Part shown: positions 15,257 to 29,045 of the stretch, in pieces
Position numbering within the stretch: the stretch's first letter is position 1
Layout of the letters: each line of letters opens with the position of its first letter
Virus record (IMG/VR): IMGVR_UViG_2579778652_000007
Span: 1 to 29,045 of that record
Length of the DNA stretch: 29,045 nucleotides
Reading direction: 5' to 3' (one strand)
Source of the DNA: a virus
Taxonomy: Duplodnaviria > Heunggongvirae > Uroviricota > Caudoviricetes
Made by a program: the position numbers and the translations under genes
The notes under the pieces: model-generated
Databases searched by the model: none
What the model was told of the DNA's origin: nothing
Seen by the model: the letters and a program-made list of their open reading frames with translations, nothing else

Positions 15257-15838
15257 ATGAAAGGCGAAGTGAAAGAGCGCGGCATGATTTTTAACGATGA
15301 GATGGTCCGGGCAATTCTTGGCGGGAATAAAACACAGACTCGCAGGATTGTTGAAGAAAAATTCTATGGACGGGCAGTGGCCGCAGAGTTGCTTGCCAAG
15401 CATTGTCCATATGGTCAACCGGGCGATCGTATTTGGGTTCGCGAAACCTACCGGGTACATGGCAAAGCGACGGACGTCGCAACGCTGGTTTATCGCGCAA
15501 GCGTGCGTAACTCCTGGACAGAACAAACGCACCGGGTTCCGGTCGAGGTTTGTAATAAACCAGTATCAGAAAAGTGGACGCCATCAATTCACATGCCGCG
15601 CTGGGCATCGCGCATTCTTCTGGAAATTACCAACGTGCGCGTTGAGCGGTTGAACGATATCAGCGAATGCGATGCAAGGGCTGAGGGCGCACCAACAGAA
15701 TCGACCCTCATTGGCGATAAGCATTACCCAGGTTTCCGTAGCCTATGGAAATCAATTTATGGCGAAGATAGTTGGAACGCTAATCCTTGGGTGTGGGTAA
15801 TAGAGTTTGAGCGTATTCAGGGGGCAACCAGTGAGTGA
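15257..15838 (+). CDS. ASCH-domain-like protein
   Basis: 193 aa; MIFNDEMVRAILGGNKTQTRR resembles ASCH G-x-K-T-x-(E/Q)-x-R signature; RBS GGGGG 5 nt upstream. Confidence 0.7.
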   Translation: MKGEVKERGMIFNDEMVRAILGGNKTQTRRIVEEKFYGRAVAAELLAKHCPYGQPGDRIWVRETYRVHGKATDVATLVYRASVRNSWTEQTHRVPVEVCNKPVSEKWTPSIHMPRWASRILLEITNVRVERLNDISECDARAEGAPTESTLIGDKHYPGFRSLWKSIYGEDSWNANPWVWVIEFERIQGATSE

Positions 15839-16091
15839 GTCAAAATGCCAAATTAATGGCAACAAGATAGAACCGTGCGCGGCGTTGGCACAATCCCTGG
15901 AGCATGACGCTGAATACACGACGCGAAAAGGTCTGCTGAAATACAAAATCTATAACCATGAATTAATTCATTCACAAGACCTGATCATGCTGCGGTCTGG
16001 TGAATTTTCTAAATCGCCTATTCGAGTTTCATTTTGCCCGTTCTGTGGTGAAAGTCTGAAAACGTGGGAAGCGGAGGCAACCAGTGAATAA
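15831..16091 (+). CDS. Small hypothetical protein with C-terminal CPFCG motif
   Basis: GTG start overlapping upstream stop (GTGAGTGA); ORF track gives 15807 (TTG) as longest start. Confidence 0.45.
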   Translation: MSESKCQINGNKIEPCAALAQSLEHDAEYTTRKGLLKYKIYNHELIHSQDLIMLRSGEFSKSPIRVSFCPFCGESLKTWEAEATSE

Positions 16092-16728
16092 CCGCTTTTA
16101 CATGATGTGCTTGCGTGAAACTGTGGGTAATAACGCCTCATTCCATTGCCATAACGGCAATGGTTACAGTTCTGATATCGATCGCGCTCATGTTTACACG
16201 CTGGAAGAAGCCCAAAAAGCCTGGAATTGTGGACGAGATATCGATCAGCCTGTTTGCGCTGATAGCGTGGATGCAATGGCTGTGTGGCACGTTGATTGCC
16301 AGTACATCCCCACAGAAAGCCTGATTGAGTCAGATTGCACTGCGTATGTGGCCTACAAAAAAGGTAGCTGGAACGGCAACGATGTTTACTGGCTTCAACA
16401 CGGTGGATTGCCAACAGATGACTTCAGTAAGGTGACCATCTTTAGCGTCGCCAACAAAAACGAACCAGGAATAGTTTGGTTGCCATTTTCCATTGCTGAT
16501 GCAGCAAAGCGTCGGACGTTCAATATCAATAACTTTAACCGCAGAACAATGGTTCAGGGCGCAGGTTTGGTCATGCCTGACTGGTTGAAAGAGCAGAACA
16601 GAAGAAAGAAGTCGCGAAGCGGGAAGGTGCGTTGGAATTGTCCGCATTGCGGAAAAATAACCTGGCAGTACAGCCCATATGATTTTGAAGGCTGTAGTGA
16701 TTACAACTGTGAAGGATGGCGAGAATGA
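16084..16728 (+). CDS. Cys/His-rich hypothetical protein
   Basis: 214 aa; GTG start with GGAGG 8 nt upstream; motifs FHCHNGNG, WNCPHCGK, CEGW. Confidence 0.6.
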   Translation: MNNRFYMMCLRETVGNNASFHCHNGNGYSSDIDRAHVYTLEEAQKAWNCGRDIDQPVCADSVDAMAVWHVDCQYIPTESLIESDCTAYVAYKKGSWNGNDVYWLQHGGLPTDDFSKVTIFSVANKNEPGIVWLPFSIADAAKRRTFNINNFNRRTMVQGAGLVMPDWLKEQNRRKKSRSGKVRWNCPHCGKITWQYSPYDFEGCSDYNCEGWRE

Positions 16729-17354
16729 CAATTGACTATCAGGCACTGCGTGAGGCGGCGGAACGTGCAATTCCAGCAATGGAACGCCTGTTAATGTTGC
16801 CAGCTGATGATGATTTGTTAAGTGAACAGGAACTTAAAGATTACGGTGTGGGTATTGATGCGCTCAACGCCTTCAAATTTCTGGCCGGACCAGAAACCGT
16901 GCTGGCACTGCTGGATGAACGGGAAAGAAACCAGCAATACATCAAACGCCGCGACCAGGAGAACGAGGATATTGCGCTAACGGTTGGGAGGCTGCTAATC
17001 GAAAACGGCCAGCTTGTTGCCGATACGCTACGCCACTTAGCTGATAACGAAATCGACTCTGATTATTTTGCTATCACCTCAACGAATGAGAACGGTACTG
17101 AAATTGATCATGAGATGGCTATTACCGATTACGCACTGCAAGCTGCCGGAACTGTAGACGAATTGGTTGCGGCGCTGGAATCCGCAGAGAAGCGCATTGC
17201 AGAACTGGAAGCGCGGGAAATACTGCTCCCGGAACGTAGCAGCATGCTTCATCGAACAGATTTTCACGATGATTACCAAACGGTAATGGCATACAAAGTT
17301 TCTGAAGTCATCGATGCAATCCGCGCTACTGGCATTCGCATCAAAGGAGAGTGA
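16725..17354 (+). CDS. Ea22-like (ead/Ea22 family) protein
   Basis: N-terminus MTIDYQALREAAERA and acidic coiled-coil body typical of lambdoid Ea22-like proteins; ATGA overlap with upstream stop (alternative start 16716). Confidence 0.7.
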   Translation: MTIDYQALREAAERAIPAMERLLMLPADDDLLSEQELKDYGVGIDALNAFKFLAGPETVLALLDERERNQQYIKRRDQENEDIALTVGRLLIENGQLVADTLRHLADNEIDSDYFAITSTNENGTEIDHEMAITDYALQAAGTVDELVAALESAEKRIAELEAREILLPERSSMLHRTDFHDDYQTVMAYKVSEVIDAIRATGIRIKGE

Positions 17355-17355
17355 T

Positions 17356-17565
17356 ATGGCTATTGCCGCAAGTTACACCATGCATCTCTACTGTGATTGT
17401 CGCCAGTGTACAAATGGTAAATATCAAACGCCAGACTTCGGTGAGTATATCGGTACGTCATGGGCTGGCTGTGCAAAAGAGGCGCGCAAGGATGGCTGGC
17501 GAATAAGCAAAGACAAAACGCGTGCTTTTGCGCCCGGGCATAAAGTTTTGAGGATTAACAAATGA
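17356..17565 (+). CDS. Small Cys-rich hypothetical protein (70 aa)
   Basis: ATG with AAGGAGAG RBS; YCDCRQC motif; ORF track gives longer 17314 start overlapping upstream gene. Confidence 0.55.
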   Translation: MAIAASYTMHLYCDCRQCTNGKYQTPDFGEYIGTSWAGCAKEARKDGWRISKDKTRAFAPGHKVLRINK

Positions 17566-18449
17566 CCACTATTACCAAAGAGCGACTGCTGACAATCAAG
17601 CAGTGGCGCGAAACATACGGACCTGGTAGCAACGTTGTACTGCCAGCAGAAGAAGCGGAAGAACTGGCACGAATTGCTCTGGCATCGCTGGAAGCAAAAC
17701 CAATAGGTGCATTCCACATTGCAGAACAGCAAGTTGACGGCACAAGTGACTACCTCAAGGATGGAGAATGGCCTATTGATAATGGAATTATTGAGGTCTA
17801 CGCCGCTCCACCCGTTCCAGTAGTACCGGAAGAAAAACCAATGCCTAATCCTCTTAGCATGTACGCGGTTGATGCTGTTGCCGCTATTGCAGAGGTGATA
17901 GGCTGGAATGCCTGCCGTGCCGCTATGCTTCAGTCCGGAAACTTTCGGGAAAACAAGAATTCGTCAACCAATAATTTTCGGGAAATCGCGGAAACGTCAA
18001 CCAACTATCCGGTAATTCCTAGTGAGGTGTTGTCCGCAATCTTGAAGGTTGCCAAGATTCGTGCCGATTTCGATGATTTTGACGGTGACAGGCGAGGTAT
18101 CGGTGATTGTCTGGATGAGGCTGAGCAAGAGCTTATCGTTACCATTAACAAATATGCCAGTCAGTTGGCAGCAGAACCTATAGCGCCTAATGACGTTCGA
18201 GAGCAGACAGCCATTCCGCAAGTTCCGGTAACTCCGGATGGTTGGATAAGCTGTAGTGAGCGAATGCCGGATACCAAAACAGCCGTTCTTGTTGCCAGGG
18301 AGTTTGACAGGAAAGGTGACTGGCGAATGAAATGGGCGACTTACATCCCGGGGCATCCTGACGCTAATGATGGGTGGGTAATACCTGGTGCGTCGTGGAT
18401 TCCATCACACTGGATGCCGCTACCAGAACCGCCGCAGGAGGCGAAATGA
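17562..18449 (+). CDS. Hypothetical protein with DUF551-like C-terminus
   Basis: 295 aa; C-terminal DGWISCSERMPD...WMPLPEPP resembles DUF551; ATGA overlap with upstream stop. Confidence 0.7.
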   Translation: MTTITKERLLTIKQWRETYGPGSNVVLPAEEAEELARIALASLEAKPIGAFHIAEQQVDGTSDYLKDGEWPIDNGIIEVYAAPPVPVVPEEKPMPNPLSMYAVDAVAAIAEVIGWNACRAAMLQSGNFRENKNSSTNNFREIAETSTNYPVIPSEVLSAILKVAKIRADFDDFDGDRRGIGDCLDEAEQELIVTINKYASQLAAEPIAPNDVREQTAIPQVPVTPDGWISCSERMPDTKTAVLVAREFDRKGDWRMKWATYIPGHPDANDGWVIPGASWIPSHWMPLPEPPQEAK

Positions 18450-18706
18450 TGGATGTAAAAGAGAAGGTTTTGCAGGTGATGCGTTCCCGTGCTGCCCTAC
18501 AAGAGAAAGCTCTCGGCGGTGAATATCCATTCACGATAGCAACCTGGAATCTGCGGTTGGCAATGGAGAAGGAATTTCCTGATGAAGAATGGCGCTCGGC
18601 AGATTTGCGCAAAATTCTTATGGAGCTGGCTAAAGACGGAACAGTATCCAAAGATACCCATGCCAGCCGGATTGGTCAGGCGGTATGGAGACTTGAGGTG
18701 CGGTAA
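18446..18706 (+). CDS. Hypothetical small protein (86 aa)
   Basis: ATG overlapping upstream stop (ATGATG); ORF track gives longer 18374 start. Confidence 0.5.
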   Translation: MMDVKEKVLQVMRSRAALQEKALGGEYPFTIATWNLRLAMEKEFPDEEWRSADLRKILMELAKDGTVSKDTHASRIGQAVWRLEVR

Positions 18707-18780
18707 TGAGCTGGCCTGAAGCATTTGCGATTGTAGGCGTAGCTATGGCGATTGCCGCTATTTTTATCTTCTGGGGGTAA
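18706..18780 (+). CDS. Possible 24-aa hydrophobic peptide
   Basis: ATG overlaps upstream stop (TAATG); MSWPEAFAIVGVAMAIAAIFIFWG; 2 nt before next ATG. Confidence 0.3.
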   Translation: MSWPEAFAIVGVAMAIAAIFIFWG

Positions 18781-18782
18781 CG

Positions 18783-19016
18783 ATGGGAAAATTAACTTTT
18801 GTTGTCGAATTTGAGGATGGCAAAGAGCCACCTGTTAGCGCCAATCTTGATGTTGCTGGTGGCAGGCTGGTTTCGGTTCTATTTGGTGATTACCGCGACG
18901 ACTTCTTTCAGCCTGAAGAAGTTGATGTAGTGCGAGAAGCATTAAACGAGCTAAGTGTTGATAACGATGATGCTCATGCGGAAATCATCAAAAAAATGGA
19001 ACTGCTAACTCACTAA
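18783..19016 (+). CDS. Hypothetical acidic small protein (77 aa)
   Basis: ORF-track ORF; tight spacing with neighbours. Confidence 0.5.
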   Translation: MGKLTFVVEFEDGKEPPVSANLDVAGGRLVSVLFGDYRDDFFQPEEVDVVREALNELSVDNDDAHAEIIKKMELLTH

Positions 19017-19064
19017 ATTATCAATTATGGTGCTATCACCTACGACACCGAGAGAAAATTTATA

Positions 19065-19187
19065 ATGTCAAAAGTAAATGTTTTGATTTTTTCAGCAATT
19101 GTTGGCTTTGGTTTTACTGCCGGAGTGCAGATTTATATTGCGTGGGAAAAAATCATCAACTACGCATGGAGTTGTTTTATTAAGTGA
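19065..19187 (+). CDS. Possible 40-aa hydrophobic peptide
   Basis: MSKVNVLIFSAIVGFGFTAGVQIYIAWEKIINYAWSCFIK; stop 8 nt before next ATG. Confidence 0.3.
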   Translation: MSKVNVLIFSAIVGFGFTAGVQIYIAWEKIINYAWSCFIK

Positions 19188-19194
19188 GGTAAGT

Positions 19195-19488
19195 ATGTGG
19201 AGAGGTAATAGTCATGGCAAAAGCCAGATGATACTTACCGAATATCAGTTTGACCATAAAACCAATAAATCACGTTCAGTATATTTGCTTCGGCACAATA
19301 GCCGCGTAAGGAATACCGTACTGGAGCAAAATCTGACTGTTGAAATGGATAATTACGGTGGCTTCAAGCCAACAATTTCGCTTGATGATTTTCCTCGTGG
19401 TTTAAGCGAAAGAGAAGCAATGCTGAAATTAGCAGAATGGCTACAAAGATTAAGCATTGCTATTGAAGATAACTGGTCTGAACCTTAA
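19195..19488 (+). CDS. Hypothetical protein (97 aa)
   Basis: ATG with GAGG 6 nt upstream; ORF track gives longer 19099 start. Confidence 0.5.
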   Translation: MWRGNSHGKSQMILTEYQFDHKTNKSRSVYLLRHNSRVRNTVLEQNLTVEMDNYGGFKPTISLDDFPRGLSEREAMLKLAEWLQRLSIAIEDNWSEP

Positions 19489-19494
19489 ATTTAT

Positions 19495-19869
19495 ATGATG
19501 ACACTAAAACATTTTCTTGACCGCCCATTATGGGCGGCAGCCGCAGGCTATGACTTTAATTATATGGATTGCATGTCTTATACTGCCAATGCATACGACC
19601 ATTCGTTCAGCCTGCTGTTTAATTCTTTAAGAATATTGCCGGAAACAGAAGTTGGAGAGCTTCATTTATGGCTATTGGGCTTTATCGCGGCTGTCGTTGG
19701 TATTGCTGTATGGCCTTTTATTTTCTGGCTGGTGGCTGTTGTAGTGTGGTTTAAGTGCAAGACGTACCGGAGAAAGTATTTCTTAGGTGATGGAATGACT
19801 GATATTGCCAAAATGAACATTGAAAAATGGACTAAGGAATGTGAAAAGAAATGGCGCAAAAAGAAATGA
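19495..19869 (+). CDS. Hypothetical membrane protein (two predicted TM segments)
   Basis: 124 aa; hydrophobic stretch LWLLGFIAAVVGIAVWPFIFWLVAVVVWF; Lys-rich C-terminus. Confidence 0.6.
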   Translation: MMTLKHFLDRPLWAAAAGYDFNYMDCMSYTANAYDHSFSLLFNSLRILPETEVGELHLWLLGFIAAVVGIAVWPFIFWLVAVVVWFKCKTYRRKYFLGDGMTDIAKMNIEKWTKECEKKWRKKK

Positions 19870-20789
19870 CCAGAATCACTGAAGAGCGTATATCAGAGAT
19901 TATTTCCCGTATCGAAATGTATGGTCACGGTGCTGGATATACGGCAGATGAAGTATTGGCACTTGCCCAAATGGTTTTGGCGGCTTGCAAAGATGATAAA
20001 AAAATGAAGTTTATCGACTTGTTAGTGAAGGAGCTGCCTAAGTGCGGCGGGTGGCCTGATGGAATGAGTTATTGTTACCTACCCAGTGTCAATTTAATGG
20101 CACCATGCGCGACTTTTGCTTTTGGCTCAGACCACAAAAAAGACACTTTCTTTGGGCGCAATTTTTGTTGTGATATTGAGCTTCCAATTGGTGACCTTGA
20201 TAGCGATGAATACCAGTCAGTTGTCACTCGCGAACAATACGAATCAGCTCTCATAGCGTCGCAGAAAGTCGAGTTCAATGGTGATGAACTTGAAAGTAAG
20301 ACTTACAGGTTGGATTTTGGGCAATGGCTGGAACAGCAACGCGGGAAAATCGATGTGGACTGTGGTTGTGTGTCCACTGAAACATTCATGCACTGGCTGC
20401 GGGTAGCTTACGAGGCTGGCAACTATCCGGATATTCCGGATAGTTCGGTGCCAGCGCCAGGAAAGGGCGTCACCGGTGAACGTATCCGCATTAAGCCGCA
20501 TGTTTATCGCGAACTGGTTAACCGTCTCCACGATACAGCGATCAAGTGTGCTGGCACCCAGCAATTACGAGAAAAAATTAGCCGTGTTTTGGGCGACGTT
20601 ATTACGCCAGATCATCATAAACAAGCCGAGAAAAGTGGCCTGGAAAGGTGTCACCTTGAGGCGGCATTAAACATTAAGCCGGGGCATACGCTTGGCATTA
20701 TTGATGCACTATTGGTTCATAAGATGGCCAGGGCTTTATTGCCGCTGGTGGCTGATAAGCATGAGGCGGGCCATGCCAACGAAAGCTGA
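19866..20789 (+). CDS. Hypothetical protein (about 307 aa)
   Basis: ATG 19866 overlaps upstream stop (ATGA); ORF track start 19851; no motif recognised. Confidence 0.65.
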   Translation: MTRITEERISEIISRIEMYGHGAGYTADEVLALAQMVLAACKDDKKMKFIDLLVKELPKCGGWPDGMSYCYLPSVNLMAPCATFAFGSDHKKDTFFGRNFCCDIELPIGDLDSDEYQSVVTREQYESALIASQKVEFNGDELESKTYRLDFGQWLEQQRGKIDVDCGCVSTETFMHWLRVAYEAGNYPDIPDSSVPAPGKGVTGERIRIKPHVYRELVNRLHDTAIKCAGTQQLREKISRVLGDVITPDHHKQAEKSGLERCHLEAALNIKPGHTLGIIDALLVHKMARALLPLVADKHEAGHANES

Positions 20790-21057
20790 GTTACAGGCGC
20801 GCATAGAGATTCTTGAAAAAGAGAATGCGAGTCTAAAAGGAATGCTGGCGCGGGCGGAAAGGGAATTATCAGGCAAATTATTGCCAGAAGAACTGCCACC
20901 AGCAGATATACCAGATCGAGTGTCCCGGTGGATGAAGTCTTTTGGTTTACCGTGGGAGGCTTTTTGGTGCTACGAGCATCGCAGATGGTGTGATGAACTT
21001 GATAGCAGTTTCCCCTACTTTGCGGAAGGGAACACCTGCCCTGAGTGTAGGAGGTAG
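20773..21057 (+). CDS. Hypothetical protein with N-terminal coiled coil and C-terminal Cys motif
   Basis: 94 aa from ATG 20773 (17-nt overlap with upstream gene); AELQARIEILEKENASLKGML; C-terminal CPEC. Confidence 0.5.
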   Translation: MPTKAELQARIEILEKENASLKGMLARAERELSGKLLPEELPPADIPDRVSRWMKSFGLPWEAFWCYEHRRWCDELDSSFPYFAEGNTCPECRR

Positions 21058-21061
21058 CGCG

Positions 21062-21322
21062 ATGTTTCGTCCTCGTCCAATACCGCCGAAAATAACTAAT
21101 GGCTATCAGCCGAATACTCCAGAAATACAAGGGAGCGAGGGGCTTAAACCACCACCAGCACCACGTATTCCGCCTGTAGCAAGGAACGTATCATTACGAC
21201 GAGAGTTAATATTAGCCTTGTCGCCCGTTCTGGCTGCCCGCCAGGATTGGGTAAGTAATGATGACCTGGCAGAAAAAATCACATCGCTGGTGGATAAAAT
21301 TCTGCATAAAGCTGATCTCTGA
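21062..21322 (+). CDS. Pro-rich hypothetical protein (86 aa)
   Basis: ATG with AGGAGG 9 nt upstream; ORF track gives 20942 start overlapping upstream gene. Confidence 0.5.
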   Translation: MFRPRPIPPKITNGYQPNTPEIQGSEGLKPPPAPRIPPVARNVSLRRELILALSPVLAARQDWVSNDDLAEKITSLVDKILHKADL

Positions 21323-21332
21323 TCACCATGCT

Positions 21333-21365
21333 AAAATCCCCTCAATTCACAGAGGGGATTTTTGT
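21333..21365 (+). terminator. Hairpin with U-tract, probable terminator ending the accessory cassette
   Basis: AAAATCCCCTC-aattcaca-GAGGGGATTTT, 11 nt after stop at 21322. Confidence 0.7.
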
Positions 21366-21367
21366 CT

Positions 21368-21634
21368 ATGTTGCATAGAGTTTTATGGAAAAGCGTTATT
21401 GTCGGCGCGATACTGGCTATATCTGGGTGTGCAATGGTGCAATACAACGACGGTGAAAAGGTAAGCATACAGTCAGATGGTTGGTATGGCCTGGATAGCC
21501 TGCAAAAAACCGCAGATAAAGCCTGTCAGCAATATGGGAAGTCTAAAGCAGTATATCAGCATAGCGCGAACGCTAACCCTCATCTAGCGCCCGGTTCGGG
21601 TGTTCAGAATACCATCTGGAAATGTGAGCCTTAA
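21368..21634 (+). CDS. Small lipoprotein (P1 Upl-like position)
   Basis: Signal peptide plus lipobox (LAISGC); ATG 21368 with AGAGGGGA upstream; ORF track start 21362 (TTG). Confidence 0.7.
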
Positions 21635-21636
21635 AT

Positions 21637-21888
21637 ATGAGCGACTGGAATATTGCAGCTAAAAGTCAGGAAGAACGGGATAAGGTTAACGTTGATCTGG
21701 CTGCCAGCGGTGTGGCGTACAAAGAGCGATTGAACATACCTGTCATAGCTGAACAGGTAGCCCGCGAGCAACCAGAGAATCTGCGCACCTATTTCATGGA
21801 ACGGCTACGGCACTACCGGCAGTTAAGCCTCCAGTTGCCAAAAGGGAGCGATCCGGCATATCAGAAAGATGATGCCGTAAAGAAATAG
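21637..21888 (+). CDS. hot: Homolog of DNA polymerase III theta subunit (HolE); P1 Hot-like
   Basis: 83 aa; [43 protein letters not shown] closely parallels E. coli HolE. Confidence 0.85.
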
Positions 21889-21894
21889 CGGTAG

Positions 21895-22467
21895 TTAACC
21901 GTTTTGAACTTCTCGTATCCTGGCAATGACAGCTTCATGCTGGGCTTGGATAGCGGCTTTTTCGTTTTCAAGCCGGGCAATAGACATCTCTAATTCTTTG
22001 CTGTACCAGGCGAGCTGGGCCAGGTTCATCCGGTTGTGGTCGAGAGTTGGAGACACTTCGACGCGATCCCTTTCTTCCTGCTTTAATGAGAAGAGATTCA
22101 TCTCATCCCTTGAGGAAAATTCAGCAACAATTTCTTGTTGATGATCCGGTCGCTGCGGCATCCTCGCCAGTATAAATGGCGGTTCTTTTGAAAACATGAA
22201 TGACGGTTTAGACCGTGTTTTGACCCATCTAGCTTGCTGTCTTTCGGCAAGTTCACAGGCTTCATCATAGTTATCTACAAAACCAAGCACGGATGGACGG
22301 TCCCACGCGCCACCATTCAGACAATAAACAAGAATTTTCCCGTCAGGTTCTGTAACTCCATAGGGATGGTCCCACCAGGCGTCCAGCTGGGCTTTGGAGC
22401 GTTTCTCGTTAGGAGTGCAGTCAAAATTTTTGGGCAATGCAGGATCGAGAGGAATGCGGGCAGGCAT
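21895..22467 (-). CDS. Hypothetical protein divergent from humD (lxr-like position)
   Basis: 190-aa ORF; RBS AAGGA 7 nt upstream on minus strand; LexA box about 135 nt upstream. Confidence 0.65.
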   Translation of the reverse strand: MPARIPLDPALPKNFDCTPNEKRSKAQLDAWWDHPYGVTEPDGKILVYCLNGGAWDRPSVLGFVDNYDEACELAERQQARWVKTRSKPSFMFSKEPPFILARMPQRPDHQQEIVAEFSSRDEMNLFSLKQEERDRVEVSPTLDHNRMNLAQLAWYSKELEMSIARLENEKAAIQAQHEAVIARIREVQNG

Positions 22468-22601
22468 GGCTAATTCCTTATTAATTGATTAGTAACGAGG
22501 TTACGCTGATCCAGCGGTGATGAATAGTAGCAAAGCGCACAAAGTCATCAGAGGGGTTAAGATCCATAACGCGTTTGCACCAAAGGTGTCTCTTTAATGT
22601 A

Positions 22602-22621
22602 TACTGTATAAATGAACAGTA
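22602..22621. promoter_or_regulatory. LexA (SOS) box TACTGTATAAATGAACAGTA
   Basis: CTGT-N8-ACAG palindrome 20 nt upstream of humD ATG, overlapping a TATAAA -10-like hexamer. Confidence 0.75.
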
Positions 22622-22640
22622 TTATTGAGGTGAAAACGCT

Positions 22641-23030
22641 ATGGGCTTCCCTTCTCCTGCGGCGGATTATGTTGAAAGCCGAATTTCTCTTGATCAGCAA
22701 CTAATCAGGCATCCATCAGCAACCTACTTCATGCGGGCAGCTGATAGCCATCACCGTGAGGGAATATTGCAGGGTGCTTTGCTGGTGGTTGATTCTTCGC
22801 TTACTCCAGTTGATGGTTCGCTGCTTGTGTGCGCTATGGAGGGTGAATATCGCATAAAGAGATACCGAAAGTATCCGCGCCAGCACCTGGAGGATTTAAG
22901 CACCGGGAAGAAAGAGGCGTTACCAGTAGATGACGATGGATGCACGGGAAGTAATGCTGTTTTTGGTGTGATCACTCATGTCATCAATGATGCCCGAAGT
23001 GGGGAATTTGATGATTGTCCGGTCATTTAA
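22641..23030 (+). CDS. humD: UmuD-prime-like SOS mutagenesis protein (P1 HumD-like)
   Basis: 129 aa beginning MGFPSPAADYVE, i.e. at the position where UmuD is cleaved (Cys24-Gly25); HPSATYF and VFGVITHVI conserved; Ser and Lys of S24 dyad region present. Confidence 0.9.
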   Translation: MGFPSPAADYVESRISLDQQLIRHPSATYFMRAADSHHREGILQGALLVVDSSLTPVDGSLLVCAMEGEYRIKRYRKYPRQHLEDLSTGKKEALPVDDDGCTGSNAVFGVITHVINDARSGEFDDCPVI

Positions 23031-23064
23031 GCTGCAAAGGGCTGGTGCTTTATGCCTGTGAGGT

Positions 23065-23094
23065 TTATAATTGTGTACACATAACGAGTACACG
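23065..23094 (+). promoter_or_regulatory. phd-doc promoter/operator: TATAAT followed by palindromes TGTGTACACA and GAGTACAC
   Basis: Perfect 10-bp palindrome 23072-23081 and related half-site 23086-23093 between -10 and the phd RBS. Confidence 0.55.
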
Positions 23095-23102
23095 AGGTGT
23101 TT

Positions 23103-23324
23103 ATGCAATCCATTAACTTCCGTACCGCGCGCGGCAACCTTTCTGAAGTGCTCAACAATGTTGAAGCCGGGGAAGAGGTTGAAATCACTCGCAGAGGCCG
23201 TGAGCCAGCAGTAATTGTCAGCAAGGCTACTTTCGAAGCCTACAAAAAAGCGGCGCTGGATGCTGAATTTGCATCCCTGTTTGACACCCTGGACTCCACC
23301 AACAAGGAACTGGTTAACCGATAA
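23103..23324 (+). CDS. phd: Phd antitoxin (Phd/YefM family)
   Basis: 73 aa [49 protein letters not shown]... matches P1 Phd as remembered. Confidence 0.95.
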
Positions 23325-23704
23325 TGAGGCATATATCACCGGAAGAACTTATTGCGCTTCATGATGCGAATATAAACCGCTACGGCGGCCTGCCGGGAAT
23401 GTCAGATCCGGGTAGGGCAGAGGCCATTATCGGGAGAGTTCAGGCCAGAGTTGCCTACGAAGAGATCACCGACCTTTTCGAAGTCTCCGCCACCTACCTG
23501 GTGGCTACAGCGAGAGGGCATATATTCAATGATGCCAATAAGCGTACCGCGCTAAACAGCGCGCTGCTATTTCTACGCCGTAACGGGGTGCAGGTATTTG
23601 ATTCACCTGAACTGGCAGACCTTACTGTAGGCGCTGCGACTGGCGAGATATCTGTATCTTCTGTCGCCGACACGTTACGTAGATTGTATGGTTCTGCGGA
23701 GTAG
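23324..23704 (+). CDS. doc: Doc toxin (Fic-fold kinase)
   Basis: 126 aa; Fic motif [11 protein letters not shown]; ATG overlaps phd stop (TAATG). Confidence 0.95.
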
Positions 23705-23915: not shown

Positions 23916-24959
23916 GTGAAAGCCGTAATTACTCCCTTTGTACAAAAAGAGCTTGGCGTCGCCACATTCAAAGTGGATCAGGAAGTCAGAAAGCTGGTGG
24001 AGGCTGGCCGTAAATTTATTATGGAGCCGGTGCCGCGTGAGTTAATCGAGCACATGGAAGACGGCCTCGTTGTTACCGAGCAAACCATGGCAACAAATGA
24101 GGCGTTGCAGCCGTTTTTTAACAGCGATGAACTGTTTCGCCGTATTGGTGGAATTGACTCGCTGGTGGCGTGGTTGCGCAGGAAAGAGGGGCAATGCCAG
24201 GCCGCAGATCGTAGCTGGTGTGACAACCATATTGTCCACGCAGAACGAGACAATAGCGCGGTGTTGTTGTGCTGGCATCACGATAACCATTACCGGATGC
24301 GTGGTTTTAATGAGCTGAAAGAAACGCTGCACAATAATCGCGTTAACTGGATACTGGATGTCGCCCGTCAGGAAATGGGCCTTTCAAATAGCCATGATTT
24401 AAGTATTCAGGAGCTGTGCTGGTGGGCTTTCATGCGCAACATGATGCACCTGATGCCGGAAGAAGTCTGCCGCATATCAATAAATAAGATGAAGGCTACT
24501 CCGCAGGATAGCGGACCTCTGAAAGAGGCGGATATTCGCCCGTATGACGATCGCGCTACAGCATATGTTCAGATGATGGAAGAACGCGCCGCGCCGATGC
24601 GTGCAAAAGTATGCCCTGTGGATGTTGACTCCGACCCAGGTATGGCGCATTTCAAAATACCAAAACTTCAATCGCTAAAATTGCCCGAGTACATGGACTT
24701 TGTGGCTTCCCGTCCATGCTGTGGCTGTGGAGCTGCGGGAGCTGGCGCTCACATTACGCCTTATATCGTTCGTCATAGTCGATTATGCGCGCATGACATT
24801 TATGCTATTCCTCTGTGCCAGTCATGCCAGCGTGATATTGAGCGTGACCGCGATAATTGGGAGAAGACGCACGGTAGGCTGGCGATGCATCAACGATTGT
24901 TCTTTGATTACGCGCTTGGAGTCGGCGCTATCACAAGTCACTCGTCGAGCGTTAGATAA
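23916..24959 (+). CDS. Hypothetical protein with C-terminal Cys/His cluster
   Basis: 347 aa; GTG start with AAAGG upstream; C-terminal [17 protein letters not shown]...[18 protein letters not shown]. Confidence 0.65.
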
Positions 24960-25047: not shown

Positions 25048-25500
25048 ATGTTACTTAACTGGCAGGGACGCCACTTCATGGAAATAAATCACTCACGAAT
25101 AACATCGTACGAGATTGCGGATTACATGATCCGCACTAAATCTCTTCTATCAGCGAAAGAACTCGCAGCAATTCTTGAAAAGGAATACCCGCATCTGGAT
25201 GTCGATAAGCGCGATGTTTATCTGCGCTTAAAGGCTATCGCTGTGTCTAAGTATTCGTCTGTTTTGATTGATGACAGTACACGCCCACGTAGATTTCAGA
25301 TCCACTCTCTGAATCCTGAATTCTTTCGCCGCAGCCGCGCTCCGCGCCGGTTTGATGAAAAACTCCAGAACGAACTCTATATGACGCAGGACGAAAAGGA
25401 ACGCCGGGAGCACCAGCCTTGGGTGATGGCGCGTCAACTTTTCAATAAGGTGGTCCGTCAGCACCGTCATTACGGTAATGCCACATCCGCACGTATCTGA
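25048..25500 (+). CDS. lpa: Putative late-promoter activator (Lpa-like) by position
   Basis: 150-aa basic ORF immediately upstream of pacA and downstream of an operator-overlapped promoter; alternative start ATG 25078; no direct motif. Confidence 0.5.
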   Translation: MLLNWQGRHFMEINHSRITSYEIADYMIRTKSLLSAKELAAILEKEYPHLDVDKRDVYLRLKAIAVSKYSSVLIDDSTRPRRFQIHSLNPEFFRRSRAPRRFDEKLQNELYMTQDEKERREHQPWVMARQLFNKVVRQHRHYGNATSARI

Positions 25501-25586: not shown

Positions 25587-26780
25587 GTGACCTGGGACGA
25601 TCACAAGAAGAATTTTGCTCGCCTGGCGCGAGATGGTGGTTACACCATCGCACAATATGCCGCCGAGTTTAATCTCAACCCAAACACCGCACGTCGTTAT
25701 CTCCGTGCATTCAAAGAAGACACCGGAACAGCGGACAGCCGTAAGCCAAATAAGCCTGTCAGAAAACCACTAAAAAGCATGATCATTGATCACGCTAATG
25801 ATCAACGTGCAGGTGATCACATTGTGGCTGAAATGGCTGAAAAACAAAGAGTTAATGCTGTTGTCAGTGCCGCAGTCGAGAACGCGAAGCGCCAGAATAA
25901 GCGCATAAATGATCGTTCTGATGATCATGACGTGATCACCCGCGCCCACCGGACCTTACGTGATCGCCTGGAACGCGACACCCTGGATGATGATGGTGAA
26001 CGCTTTGAATTCGAAGCGGGCGATTACCTGATAGATAACGTTGAAGCGCGGAAGGCCGCGCGCGCTATGTTGCGTCGTTCCGGAGCTGATGTTCTGGAAA
26101 CCACTCTTCTGGAAAAGTCTCTTTCTCATCTCCTTATGCTGGAGAACGCCCGGGATACGTGTATTCGCCTGGTGCAGGAAATGCGCGATCAGCAAAAAGA
26201 CGATGATGAAGGTACTCCGCCTGAATACCGTATCGCGAGCATGCTAAACAGCTGTTCCGCGCAGATAAGCAGTCTGATCAACACCATTTACAGCATCCGG
26301 AATAACTATCGAAAAGAAAGCCGGGAGGCGGAAAAGCACGCTTTGTCTATGGGGCAAGCTGGCATTGTTAAGCTGGCATACGAACGAAAGCGTGAAAATA
26401 ACTGGTCAGTTCTGGAAGCGGCTGAATTCATCGAGGCGCATGGAGGGAAAGTGCCGCCCCTGATGCTGGAGCAAATCAAAGCCGATCTGCGTGCTCCTAA
26501 GACAAATACCGATGATGAGGAAAGGCAAACTGCCGTCGGTGGCCCTTCTCTTGAAGATCTGGACAAAGTTGCGCGAGAACGGGCCGCCAACCGCCGCGCC
26601 GATGCCGCATTGTGGATTGAGCAGCGTAGGGAAGAAATCGCCGATATCGTTGATACAGGCGGTTATGGAGATGTTGATACTGAAGGTGTATCAAACGACC
26701 CATGGCTGGAACAAGACCTGGACGAAGACGAGGAGGAAGATGAAGAAGTTACCCGCAAGCTATACGGGGATGATGATTAA
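25587..26780 (+). CDS. pacA: Terminase small/pac-recognition subunit (PacA-like)
   Basis: 397 aa; GTG start with AAGGAAG RBS; gene contains the pac hexamer cluster; acidic C-terminus. Confidence 0.8.
25781..25967. other. pac packaging site: clusters of TGATCA/G hexamers, each containing GATC
   Basis: Left cluster 25781-25786, 25788-25793, 25800-25805, 25815-25820; right cluster 25911-25916, 25923-25928, 25934-25939, plus 25962-25967; about 90 bp between clusters. Confidence 0.8.
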
Positions 26781-28264
26781 TGGCCAGAAGTTGCGTAACG
26801 GATCCACGTTGGCGCGAGCTGGTGGCGCTATATCGTTATGACTGGATTGCTGCCGCTGATGTTTTGTTCGGCAAAACACCTACCTGGCAGCAGGATCTGA
26901 TTATTGAGTCTGTGCAGGAACAGGGTAGCAAGACATCTGTTTCGTCTGGTCACGGTACCGGGAAATCAGACATGACTTCTATCATGATCATGTTGTTCAT
27001 AATCATGTATCCCGGTGCCCGCGCCATTATCGTTGCGAACAAAATTCAGCAGGTAATGACCGGTATATTCAAGTACATCAAGATAAACTGGGCTACTGCC
27101 ACCAGCCGTTTTCCATGGCTTGCTGATTATTTTGTTCTGACAGAAACCGCTTTCTATGAGGTTACTGGTAAAGGTGTATGGACTGTAGTACCGAAGGGCT
27201 TTCGTCTGGGAAGTGAAGAAGCTCTCGCCGGTGAACACGCAGATCATCTTCTGTATATTATCGATGAAGCCTCCGGTGTCAGTGATAGAGCTTTCGGTAT
27301 CATCACCGGTGCTCTTACCGGACAGGATAACCGCATCTTATTACTGTCACAGCCTACACGCCCAAGCGGCTATTTCTACGATACTCACCATAAACTGGCC
27401 AAGCGTCCTGGTAACCCTGATGGCGTTTATACGGCGATCACGCTTAACAGTGAGGAATCACCGCTGGTAACGCCAGCATTTATCAAAATGAAGCTGGCGG
27501 AGTACGGCGGGCGCGATAACCCTATGTACATGATTAAGGTACGCGGCCTATTCCCTAAATCACAGGATGGCTTCCTTCTTGGACGTGATGAGGTTGAACG
27601 TGCAACGCGGCGGAAAGTCAAGATTGCCAAAGGATGGGGCTGGCTTGCATGTGTGGACGTTGCTGGTGGTACGGGAAGGGATAAGTCCGTTATCAATATC
27701 ATGATGGTGTCCGGCCAGCGAAACAAACGCCGTGTAATCAACTATCGAATGCTGGAATACACAGACGTTACAGAAACGCAGCTTGCCGCCAAAATTTTCG
27801 CAGAATGTAATCCTGAGCGATTCCCAAATATCACCATAGCGATAGACGGCGATGGCCTGGGTAAAGCAACAGCGGATCTGATGTACGAGTATTATGGTAT
27901 TACCGTACAGCGTATACGCTGGGGTAAAAAGATGCATAGCCGTGAAGATAAGAGCCTGTACTTTGATAAACGTGCTTATGCCAACGTTCAAGCCTCAGAG
28001 GCCGTAAAATCTGGTCGTATGAGACTGGATAAGGGTAATGAAACTATTGAGGAAGCGTCGAAAATCCCTGTAGGGATTAACTCCGCAGGTCAATGGAAGG
28101 TGATGAGTAAGGAGGATATGAAGAAAAAACTCAACCTGCACTCACCAGACCATTGGGATACATATTGTTTCGCTATGCTGGCGGATTATGTTCCCCAGGA
28201 TGAAGTGCTTAGCGTCGAAGACGAAGCGCAGGTTGATGAAGCTCTGGCATGGCTTAATGAGTAA
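26780..28264 (+). CDS. pacB: Terminase large subunit (PacB-like)
   Basis: 494 aa; Walker [10 protein letters not shown], Walker [11 protein letters not shown]; ATG overlaps pacA stop (TAATG). Confidence 0.85.
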
Positions 28265-28267
28265 AAA

Positions 28268-28284
28268 CTTGCTCTAATAAATTG
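28268..28284 (+). promoter_or_regulatory. C1-operator-like 17-mer CTTGCTCTAATAAATTG (15/17)
   Basis: Begins 4 nt after the pacB stop. Confidence 0.55.
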
Positions 28285-28415
28285 TGTTTTTTGACTGCCG
28301 ATGTTACATTGAACCTGACCTCTTGCGCCTTGAGGCATTTTCGGTTTATGCTTATCAGGCACCTCAGTAAAACGGGTGCCGGGATTGGAACCCCGGATAA
28401 TGTCAAAGGCGACAC

Positions 28416-28438
28416 AGACGCCAAAAGCGTCTTTTTTT
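28416..28438 (+). terminator. Rho-independent terminator
   Basis: AGACGC-caaaa-GCGTCT followed by TTTTTT. Confidence 0.75.
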
Positions 28439-28623
28439 GTGTCATGCCATCGCACGGCCATACGTAGCGTTTAGCTCAGAGATCAATGGTAGTGCTGGCT
28501 GGGCTGCCGAAAGGCAGGCCGGTTCCCTTTGACGCCGGTAGTTCCAACCCAGTCAGTGCTACCGCCATTGAGATTGGAACCTCACGCGGTAGCTCCTTAA
28601 CTTAGTCAAAGGAGGCTGCCATT

Positions 28624-28845
28624 ATGGCTACTATCCCTACCCCAACTCATCCTGAATTTATCTGGCGCTTTTACTCCTGCCAGAAACGTCACTATCACTT
28701 CGTTATTGCACCGACAGAAGATGAGGCTCGCTCTCAGCTTCCTGATGCACCCTGTATTTTCTCCGCCCGTTTTTCTACTGATTCGCGCAATTCTCTCAGT
28801 TACTGGTGCCTCCCTGTTAACGCTTCTGCTCAGGAGGGACTATGA
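28624..28845 (+). CDS. Small hypothetical protein (73 aa; possibly Coi-like by position)
   Basis: Strong RBS AAAGGAGG 8 nt upstream; stop overlaps next ATG (ATGA). Confidence 0.55.
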   Translation: MATIPTPTHPEFIWRFYSCQKRHYHFVIAPTEDEARSQLPDAPCIFSARFSTDSRNSLSYWCLPVNASAQEGL

Positions 28846-29045
28846 GAACGTCATTAGTCACCCGTGAAGAGATGATCGAGGCAATTGAACAGCACACTGC
28901 CTGTATCAGTACCAGGGATATACCAGGCGTTATAGCCAACTACTTCATGATCACCAAACAACTTTACCGGAGAAAGGACAAGAACGCTGTTCACCGCATT
29001 CTGTTGTCTGATATCCGCGAATACCTGCTCGAACAGGGTCATCTG
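28842..29045 (+). CDS. Hypothetical protein, 5' partial (runs off window end; possibly immunity-region gene)
   Basis: ATG with GGAGGG RBS, open through the window end (68 codons); absent from ORF track because no stop in window. Confidence 0.5.
   Translation, partial: MRTSLVTREEMIEAIEQHTACISTRDIPGVIANYFMITKQLYRRKDKNAVHRILLSDIREYLLEQGHL

Follow-up and report, generated by a model that had tools for sequence, protein, structure and literature searches.

Is the short S24-type gene at 22641-23030 a ready-made UmuD', placed behind a LexA box and without a umuC partner, and what might such a protein do? We addressed this question in a 29,045-nt stretch of viral DNA, referred to below as the window, at a locus that runs from 22468, the first intergenic base past the start codon of the divergent gene lxr, to 23030, the last base of the stop codon of the S24-type gene. 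The locus is humD of phage P1 together with its annotated LexA operator, and it is already known: the P1 gene, its LexA box, and the missing umuC partner were described between 1999 and 2004 and are part of both the reference annotation and a curated NCBI family. A first-pass annotation had arrived at the same reading from the letters of this DNA, and that reading as a whole matches published P1 humD in the identity of the protein, in the match to family NF051876, and in the annotated LexA site. As a finding, it adds nothing new and has context value only.

The humD gene and its P1-like setting

The humD coding sequence, which specifies a pre-truncated UmuD' homologue, occupies 22641-23030 of the plus strand (129 codons plus the stop). 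It opens with an ATG, and the protein reads MGFPSPAADYVESR... from its N terminus. An in-frame TGA (22626-22628, plus strand) stands four codons 5' of the ATG, with GGT GAA AAC GCT in between, and this stop excludes a longer N terminus and, with it, an arm or a cleavage site. A Shine-Dalgarno-like GAGGTG (22627-22632, plus strand) was found 8 nt 5' of the ATG. In a phmmer comparison with the PDB, the first residue of UmuD' (1umu; E=2.2e-23) fell opposite Gly2 of the protein, as did residue 25 of the full-length UmuD 8gmt_B, and a MAFFT alignment with E. coli UmuD gave the same register. The start had been placed at the equivalent of UmuD Gly25, after the initiating Met, and this placement is supported both by the pairing of Gly2 with Gly25 and by the upstream TGA. 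Since Gly25 is where RecA-stimulated self-cleavage cuts UmuD, the protein is synthesized directly in a UmuD'-like form. As far as the sequence tells, the gene product is an equivalent of UmuD' and has neither the arm nor the Cys/Ala-Gly site of the UmuD proprotein. The term "constitutively activated UmuD-prime mimic," which had been applied to it, stands insofar as the protein is encoded in its post-cleavage form, but it claims too much in other respects, as only the RecA-mediated cleavage step is removed. The host still provides, and controls, the UmuC partner and the activation of Pol V by RecA*.

Alignment of the protein with P1 HumD showed that 127 of 129 residues (98.4%) are shared; the two differences, Y101C and C103G, both fall in a variable loop, and HumD of the phage-plasmid JL22 is 100% identical to the window protein. 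In profile searches, the protein scored 219.3 bits (cut-off, 120) with NF051876, the NCBIfam equivalog model named "HumD family translesion DNA polymerase," and its residues 1-129 aligned to profile positions 1-129 of 129. With the UmuD subfamily model NF007621 (PRK10276), it scored 87.8 bits, under the cut-off of 110, which leaves it outside that subfamily. It also matched Pfam Peptidase_S24 (PF00717; E=5.7e-9) and is classed in PHROGs as "UmuD-like protein." The best sequence matches in the PDB were UmuD' 1umu, 1i4v, the full-length UmuD 8gmt_B, and 1ay9. LexA entries matched at E=7e-4 to 1e-2, 20 orders of magnitude weaker than UmuD', and the score with the LexA model TIGR00498 was 28 bits (cut-off, 111). 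In an AF2 monomer model, pLDDT was 82-90 in the core and low for residues 1-23 and for the last nine, and a Foldseek search with this model placed UmuD'/UmuD at the top, with LexA C-terminal domains next.

Loss of the Ser/Lys dyad in an alignment with UmuD had been named as a point that would speak against the assignment. We found the dyad to be kept: by alignment, Ser36 (codon 22746-22748, plus strand) occupies the position of the nucleophile, UmuD Ser60, and Lys73 (codon 22857-22859, plus strand) that of the general base, UmuD Lys97. Loss of the dyad is, however, not decisive against a UmuD' mimic, as distant proteins of this type encoded without an adjacent umuC, here called orphans, have Thr, Gln, or Tyr at the Ser60 position. 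Such residues are to be expected there if the need for self-cleavage has gone.

The gene had further been described as lacking a umuC partner, and our searches agree. With tblastn, E. coli UmuC found nothing better than E=0.69 in the 29,045-nt window, which is the stretch of this element that the absence covers, and the neighbors of humD are lxr and phd/doc, with no umuC adjacent to it. The same type of search against a phage collection matched 117 records, with no P1-like record among the best 30 of the 117; "Escherichia" was absent from the organism names tallied for the UmuC matches, yet at least 18 Escherichia records carry humD.

On gene order and nucleotide identity, we assign the window to a P1-like phage-plasmid (Punavirus). 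The 1.8 kb around humD showed 97% DNA identity to P1, P7, and SJ46, and 25 kb of the window was ∼98% identical to SJ46, P7, and RCS47, over 81-86% of its length. By blastn, window positions 57-28264 mapped to P1 69,572-93,206, with three segments replaced, and the same region is present in many E. coli plasmids. The genes follow the P1 order hot-lxr-humD-phd-doc-pdcA-pdcB-lpa-pacA, with hot, which encodes a Pol III theta homologue, at 21637-21888, phd at 23103-23324, doc at 23324-23704, pdcA and pdcB at 23916-24959, lpa at 25048-25500, and ORFs collinear with P1 pacA and pacB at 25587-26780 and 26780-28264.

Some stretches of the window departed from P1. In the stretch immediately before hot (15348-21635), plus-strand ORFs spanning ∼6.3 kb stand in place of the roughly 2-kb pmgT-upfO region of P1; they include an Ead/Ea22-like ORF (16716-17354), a DUF551 ORF (17562-18449), and several without a family, and the stretch is the counterpart of what has been called "variable region 8" in P1-like phage-plasmids (PMC9603915). 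The DNA 3' of pacB (28264-29045) is unlike P1, where c1 comes next, and gave a ∼95% match to the ant/roi-type (antirepressor/DNA-binding) region of RCS47 and JL22. Positions 592-1183 (tciA region) and 3163-3452 (ban/dbn junction) also remained unaligned to P1.

The LexA box and the divergent gene lxr

Between the divergent genes lxr and humD lies an intergenic region of 173 nt (22468-22640), as delimited from the sequence and the P1 alignment. Motif scans of this region located a LexA (SOS) box, TACTGTATAAATGAACAGTA (22602-22621), whose core, CTGT-N8-ACAG, spans 22604-22619. From the end of the core it is 21 nt to the humD ATG, and from the end of the 20-mer 19 nt, in keeping with the SOS box that had been reported about 20 nt upstream, within the divergent region that humD shares with a 190-aa gene. 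The pattern CTGT-N8-ACAG had one match in the window, with 0.31 expected, and at least one match in 27 of 100 shuffles; because of this last result, we rejected the minimal pattern alone as evidence. The 20-mer at 22602-22621, in turn, has three mismatches to the consensus TACTGTATATATATACAGTA, a level reached in 0 of 100 shuffles, and the humD box shows the TACTGT-N8-ACAGTA pattern near a start by which operators of the LexA regulon are recognized. The E. coli K-12 umuDC operator, TACTGTATATAAAAACAGTA, has two mismatches to the same palindromic LexA consensus.

The box is identical to the P1 site. Aligned with its P1 counterpart, the intergenic region showed a single difference in the 54 nt adjacent to humD, a stretch that contains the box, and about 15 differences and a 1-nt indel in the remainder. 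A LexA box was also present at the equivalent place in N15, phiKO2, BTP1, Aeromonas pAEv1818, and Hafnia yong1, within flanking DNA that could not be aligned. In the GenBank record of phiKO2, the box is labeled as a site of lexA binding, the P1 record lists a "LexA binding site in the regulatory region of lxr and humD," and humD has been stated to be LexA-regulated (PMC9603915). The LexA box thus probably ties humD expression to the SOS response; the tie to "induction of the element" that had been drawn from it goes beyond present evidence.

A scan of 22300-23200 for sigma-70 consensus promoters returned none. With relaxed settings, we obtained a candidate −10 element, TATACT (22600-22605, plus strand), that overlaps the left half of the LexA box, and the sole −35 candidate, TTGCAC (22575-22580; 19-nt spacer), was weak. 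A second promoter candidate from the relaxed scan would exclude the ribosome-binding site from the transcript. To retain this site in its transcript, a promoter has to overlap the box, so that LexA probably represses humD by occluding the promoter. In the P1 record, the predicted promoter PhumD is located within lxr, ∼480 nt upstream; the window is identical in sequence there (22138-22164), and this promoter seems to be a weak one. On the minus strand, the relaxed scan produced no promoter candidate for lxr, and LexA control of lxr therefore rests on annotation. We note that at 22601, 1 nt before the box, the window has A in place of the G of P1, which changes TGTACT to the better −10-like TATACT.

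The divergent gene that shares the SOS box, lxr (21895-22467, minus strand; 190 aa), is annotated in the P1 GenBank record as "LexA regulated function," and 10 of the 190 residues of its product differ from those of P1 Lxr. Lxr had no match in Pfam, NCBIfam, or PADLOC and belongs to phrog_6164 (function unknown). Its AF2 model (pLDDT 90) consists of two beta3-alpha units and a long C-terminal helix; searches among solved and viral structures brought up nothing significantly related to it, and we found no support for the NCBI name "DNA-binding protein." PADLOC gave no match for HumD either, and an anti-defense role for HumD and Lxr was dropped on this account.

In P1-like elements, members of the Lxr family are 190 aa long; shorter members of ∼130 aa, which contain just the N-terminal domain, occur in Salmonella, Enterobacter, Burkholderia, and Mesorhizobium. 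Residues C49, L50, G52, G53, D56, and R57 are invariant in the family and lie in a near-invariant C-L-N-G-G-A-W-D-R; a QRPD motif is near-invariant as well. No S24 gene was found near the Lxr homologues in the Burkholderia and Salmonella contigs, nor did a scan of two loci, L004 and L006, detect CTGT-N8-ACAG upstream of the Lxr homologue. A conserved lxr-humD module beyond P1 was rejected on these grounds, and the pairing of the two genes appears to be specific to the P1 lineage. In the Burkholderia gladioli contig CADEWZ010000019.1, a LexA-type box, CTGTATATCCATACAG (L004, 5358-5373), lies 14 nt 5' of a 155-aa gene without a Pfam match, which is the next gene downstream of the Lxr homologue.

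Proposed role of HumD and competing readings

The P1 GenBank record describes humD as "DNA repair; functionally complements E. coli UmuD'" and as "69 pct identical to gp26" of coliphage N15, and HumD has been presented as a shorter UmuD that is already activated (PMC7092418). The primary characterization of P1 HumD is that of McLenigan et al. (1999, J Bacteriol 181:7005). Replacement of UmuD' in SOS mutagenesis is thus a published property of P1 HumD, 98.4% identical to the window protein, and by homology the window allele is predicted to share it. We consider it highly probable that the gene is the humD of a P1-like phage-plasmid and that its product is a LexA-controlled UmuD' surrogate that pairs with host UmuC. 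P1 HumD is reportedly UmuD'-sized and without a umuC partner, complements UmuD' function, and is said to dimerize and to bind UmuC and RecA filaments.

In a lysogen, LexA on the box 19 nt 5' of the start would hold humD off, and the divergent lxr, going by its annotation, would also be repressed by LexA. DNA damage would give rise to RecA*, LexA would be cleaved, and HumD would be synthesized. HumD dimers and SOS-induced host UmuC would then form a Pol V-like translesion polymerase, so that the slow cleavage of UmuD to UmuD' would be skipped; RecA* is still required for Pol V activation. Against this explanation we count the lack of a consensus promoter, the position of PhumD inside lxr, the substitutions Y101C and C103G, and a CRISPRi screen of P1 in which hot, lxr, and humD were non-essential and humD was dispensable for lytic growth. 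Phage-plasmids of the P1 type are frequent in Enterobacteriaceae and bear resistance genes; in hosts with umuC, the UmuD' surrogate that they bring, which is SOS-inducible and independent of cleavage, could increase damage-induced mutagenesis.

Alignments revealed a C-terminal tail, G-E-F-D-D-C-P-V-I (residues 121-129; 23001-23027, plus strand), by which the orphans differ from the umuC-linked UmuD proteins aligned with them: E. coli UmuD and the umuC-linked UmuD of PHB10 and Oslo stop short of it, and that of ENT39118 has a short unrelated ending. In the 120 closest database relatives of the window protein, which have at least 67% identity to it, the tail positions were occupied by E in 116, F in 115, D in 116, D in 114, C in 107, P in 115, and V in 108. 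The pattern [GA]-E-F-D-D-C-P-V-[IM], to which the window protein conforms, is nearly invariant in orphan HumD-type proteins; as a criterion for the HumD family, the tail was derived here from alignments and is not a published one, and no mention of a conserved HumD tail was found in the literature searched. The M-G-F-P start was present in 101 of the 120 relatives, and most of the longer ones hold M-G-F-P internally, which looks like the result of upstream start calls. At the Ser60 position, Ser (75/120) and Thr (44/120) predominated, and the Lys97 position was Lys in 116/120; proteins from Aeromonas and Hafnia have Gln or Tyr at the former and Arg at the latter. Variation at Ser60 with Lys kept is consistent with a relaxed need for self-cleavage and some retained role of the Lys. 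Across the more divergent orphans, the proteins of the window, P1, N15, phiKO2, HK140, pAEv1818, and yong1 have in common an M-G-[FM]-P start, a one-residue deletion before the Ser60 position, and the ending [SG]-E-[FW]-D-D-x-P-x-x.

What might the tail contribute? It has low pLDDT in the AF2 monomer and is probably flexible. The acidic C-terminal tip of bacterial SSB reads D-F-D-D-D-I-P-F. The HumD tail resembles this tip, which we take as a lead only. That the tail is a docking peptide for an extra partner (an SSB-tail-binding protein, SSB, or a UmuC/RecA* contact), which would make the class more than a shortened UmuD and could place Lxr in the same damage-response module, seems to us improbable. 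If it were so, HumD would rewire translesion synthesis or replisome traffic, beyond skipping cleavage.

Less far-fetched, although still unlikely, is that HumD acts mainly as a modulator and, through heterodimers with host UmuD/UmuD', binding to RecA filaments, or its acidic tail, alters the checkpoint, recombination, or the replisome in SOS to the benefit of the phage, with UmuD' complementation being a side effect of overexpression. The presence of E-F-D-D-C-P-V-[IM] throughout the orphan class and its absence from umuC-linked UmuD suggest an additional interaction of this kind. The proximity of humD to hot, the gene for a homologue of a Pol III subunit, points the same way, as do the dinI homologue, encoding a RecA-filament binder, that adjoins the orphan gene in phiKO2 and HK140 and the complementation itself, which is reportedly strong only from a high-copy plasmid. 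The published functional data, however, concern UmuD' replacement (P1 GenBank note; PMC7092418), and no partner of the tail is known; the low confidence of the tail in the AF2 monomer is neutral in this matter. Modulation of this sort is compatible with the UmuD' surrogate that we favor, and may add to UmuD' replacement or outweigh it.

We regard it as very improbable that humD is a functionless, decayed remnant of umuDC, consisting of a 5'-truncated umuD left behind after the loss of umuC. Both the N-terminal arm and the umuC partner are indeed missing, but the same point of truncation, an M-G-F-P start, a ribosome-binding site, and a LexA box are met again in many divergent phages and prophages, and the reading frame is intact throughout a family for which a curated equivalog model exists. 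Moreover, much of the body is less conserved than the class-specific tail, and P1 HumD is annotated as active. We give hardly any credence to the view that the protein belongs to a LexA/CI-type repressor as its C-terminal domain, or that it is an S24 peptidase unrelated to translesion synthesis, since the generic Peptidase_S24 match, the weak LexA matches, and the name "LexA family transcriptional regulator" given to several database relatives stand against the absence of a DNA-binding domain, for which 129 aa and the upstream stop leave no room, a similarity to UmuD' that exceeds that to LexA by the 20 orders of magnitude given above, and the full-length match to the HumD equivalog.

Comparison with known systems

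The closest counterpart of the window gene is P1 HumD (GenBank AAQ14073; genome AF234172/NC_005856), which has the same place, gene order, 20-nt box, and distance from box to start. The window differs from P1 by Y101C and C103G in the protein, by the G-to-A change at 22601, and by the 6.3-kb region upstream of hot. Beyond P1, N15 gp26, phiKO2 gp23, HK140 gp28, and the proteins of pAEv1818 and yong1 share with the window protein the M-G-[FM]-P start at Gly25 and the [SG]-E-[FW]-D-D-x-P tail. Like humD of the window, the orphan genes of N15, phiKO2, HK140, BTP1/P22-like phages, pAEv1818, and yong1 have no adjacent umuC, and a LexA box lies just upstream in all but HK140. Their products are 45-70% identical to the window protein, and their loci are tail-fiber/partition or tail-fiber/integrase junctions; several have Thr, Gln, or Tyr at the Ser60 position, unlike the window protein. 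The phiKO2 and HK140 orphans adjoin dinI, whereas humD of the window adjoins lxr. In phiKO2 (L010, 1181-1884), the orphan umuD'-type gene is divergent from the dinI homologue across the annotated LexA site, and in HK140 (L011, 910-1890), dinI is next to the orphan umuD'-type gene.

With E. coli UmuD/UmuD' (1umu, 1ay9, 1i4v, and 8gmt), HumD shares the S24 fold and ∼43-45% identity over UmuD residues 25-139, and a LexA box of the same type lies about 20 nt upstream of umuDC, as it does at humD. Compared to E. coli UmuD, HumD has neither the 24-residue arm nor the Cys24-Gly25 site, so that RecA-dependent cleavage would be unneeded, and it is not part of an operon with umuC. It also has a one-residue deletion before the Ser and an extra 10-residue C-terminal tail. 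The umuDC-like operons of the phages PHB10, vB_SosS_Oslo, and ENT39118 lie directly 3' of a tail-fiber gene and encode full-length UmuD-like proteins, with an N-terminal arm, a C/A-G cleavage site, and an SGDSM motif, directly followed by umuC; unlike the HumD of the window, these proteins lack the HumD tail. Together with the plasmid-borne mucAB, rumAB, and impAB, these phage operons hold mobile-element versions of the accessory protein of SOS mutagenesis, as does humD.
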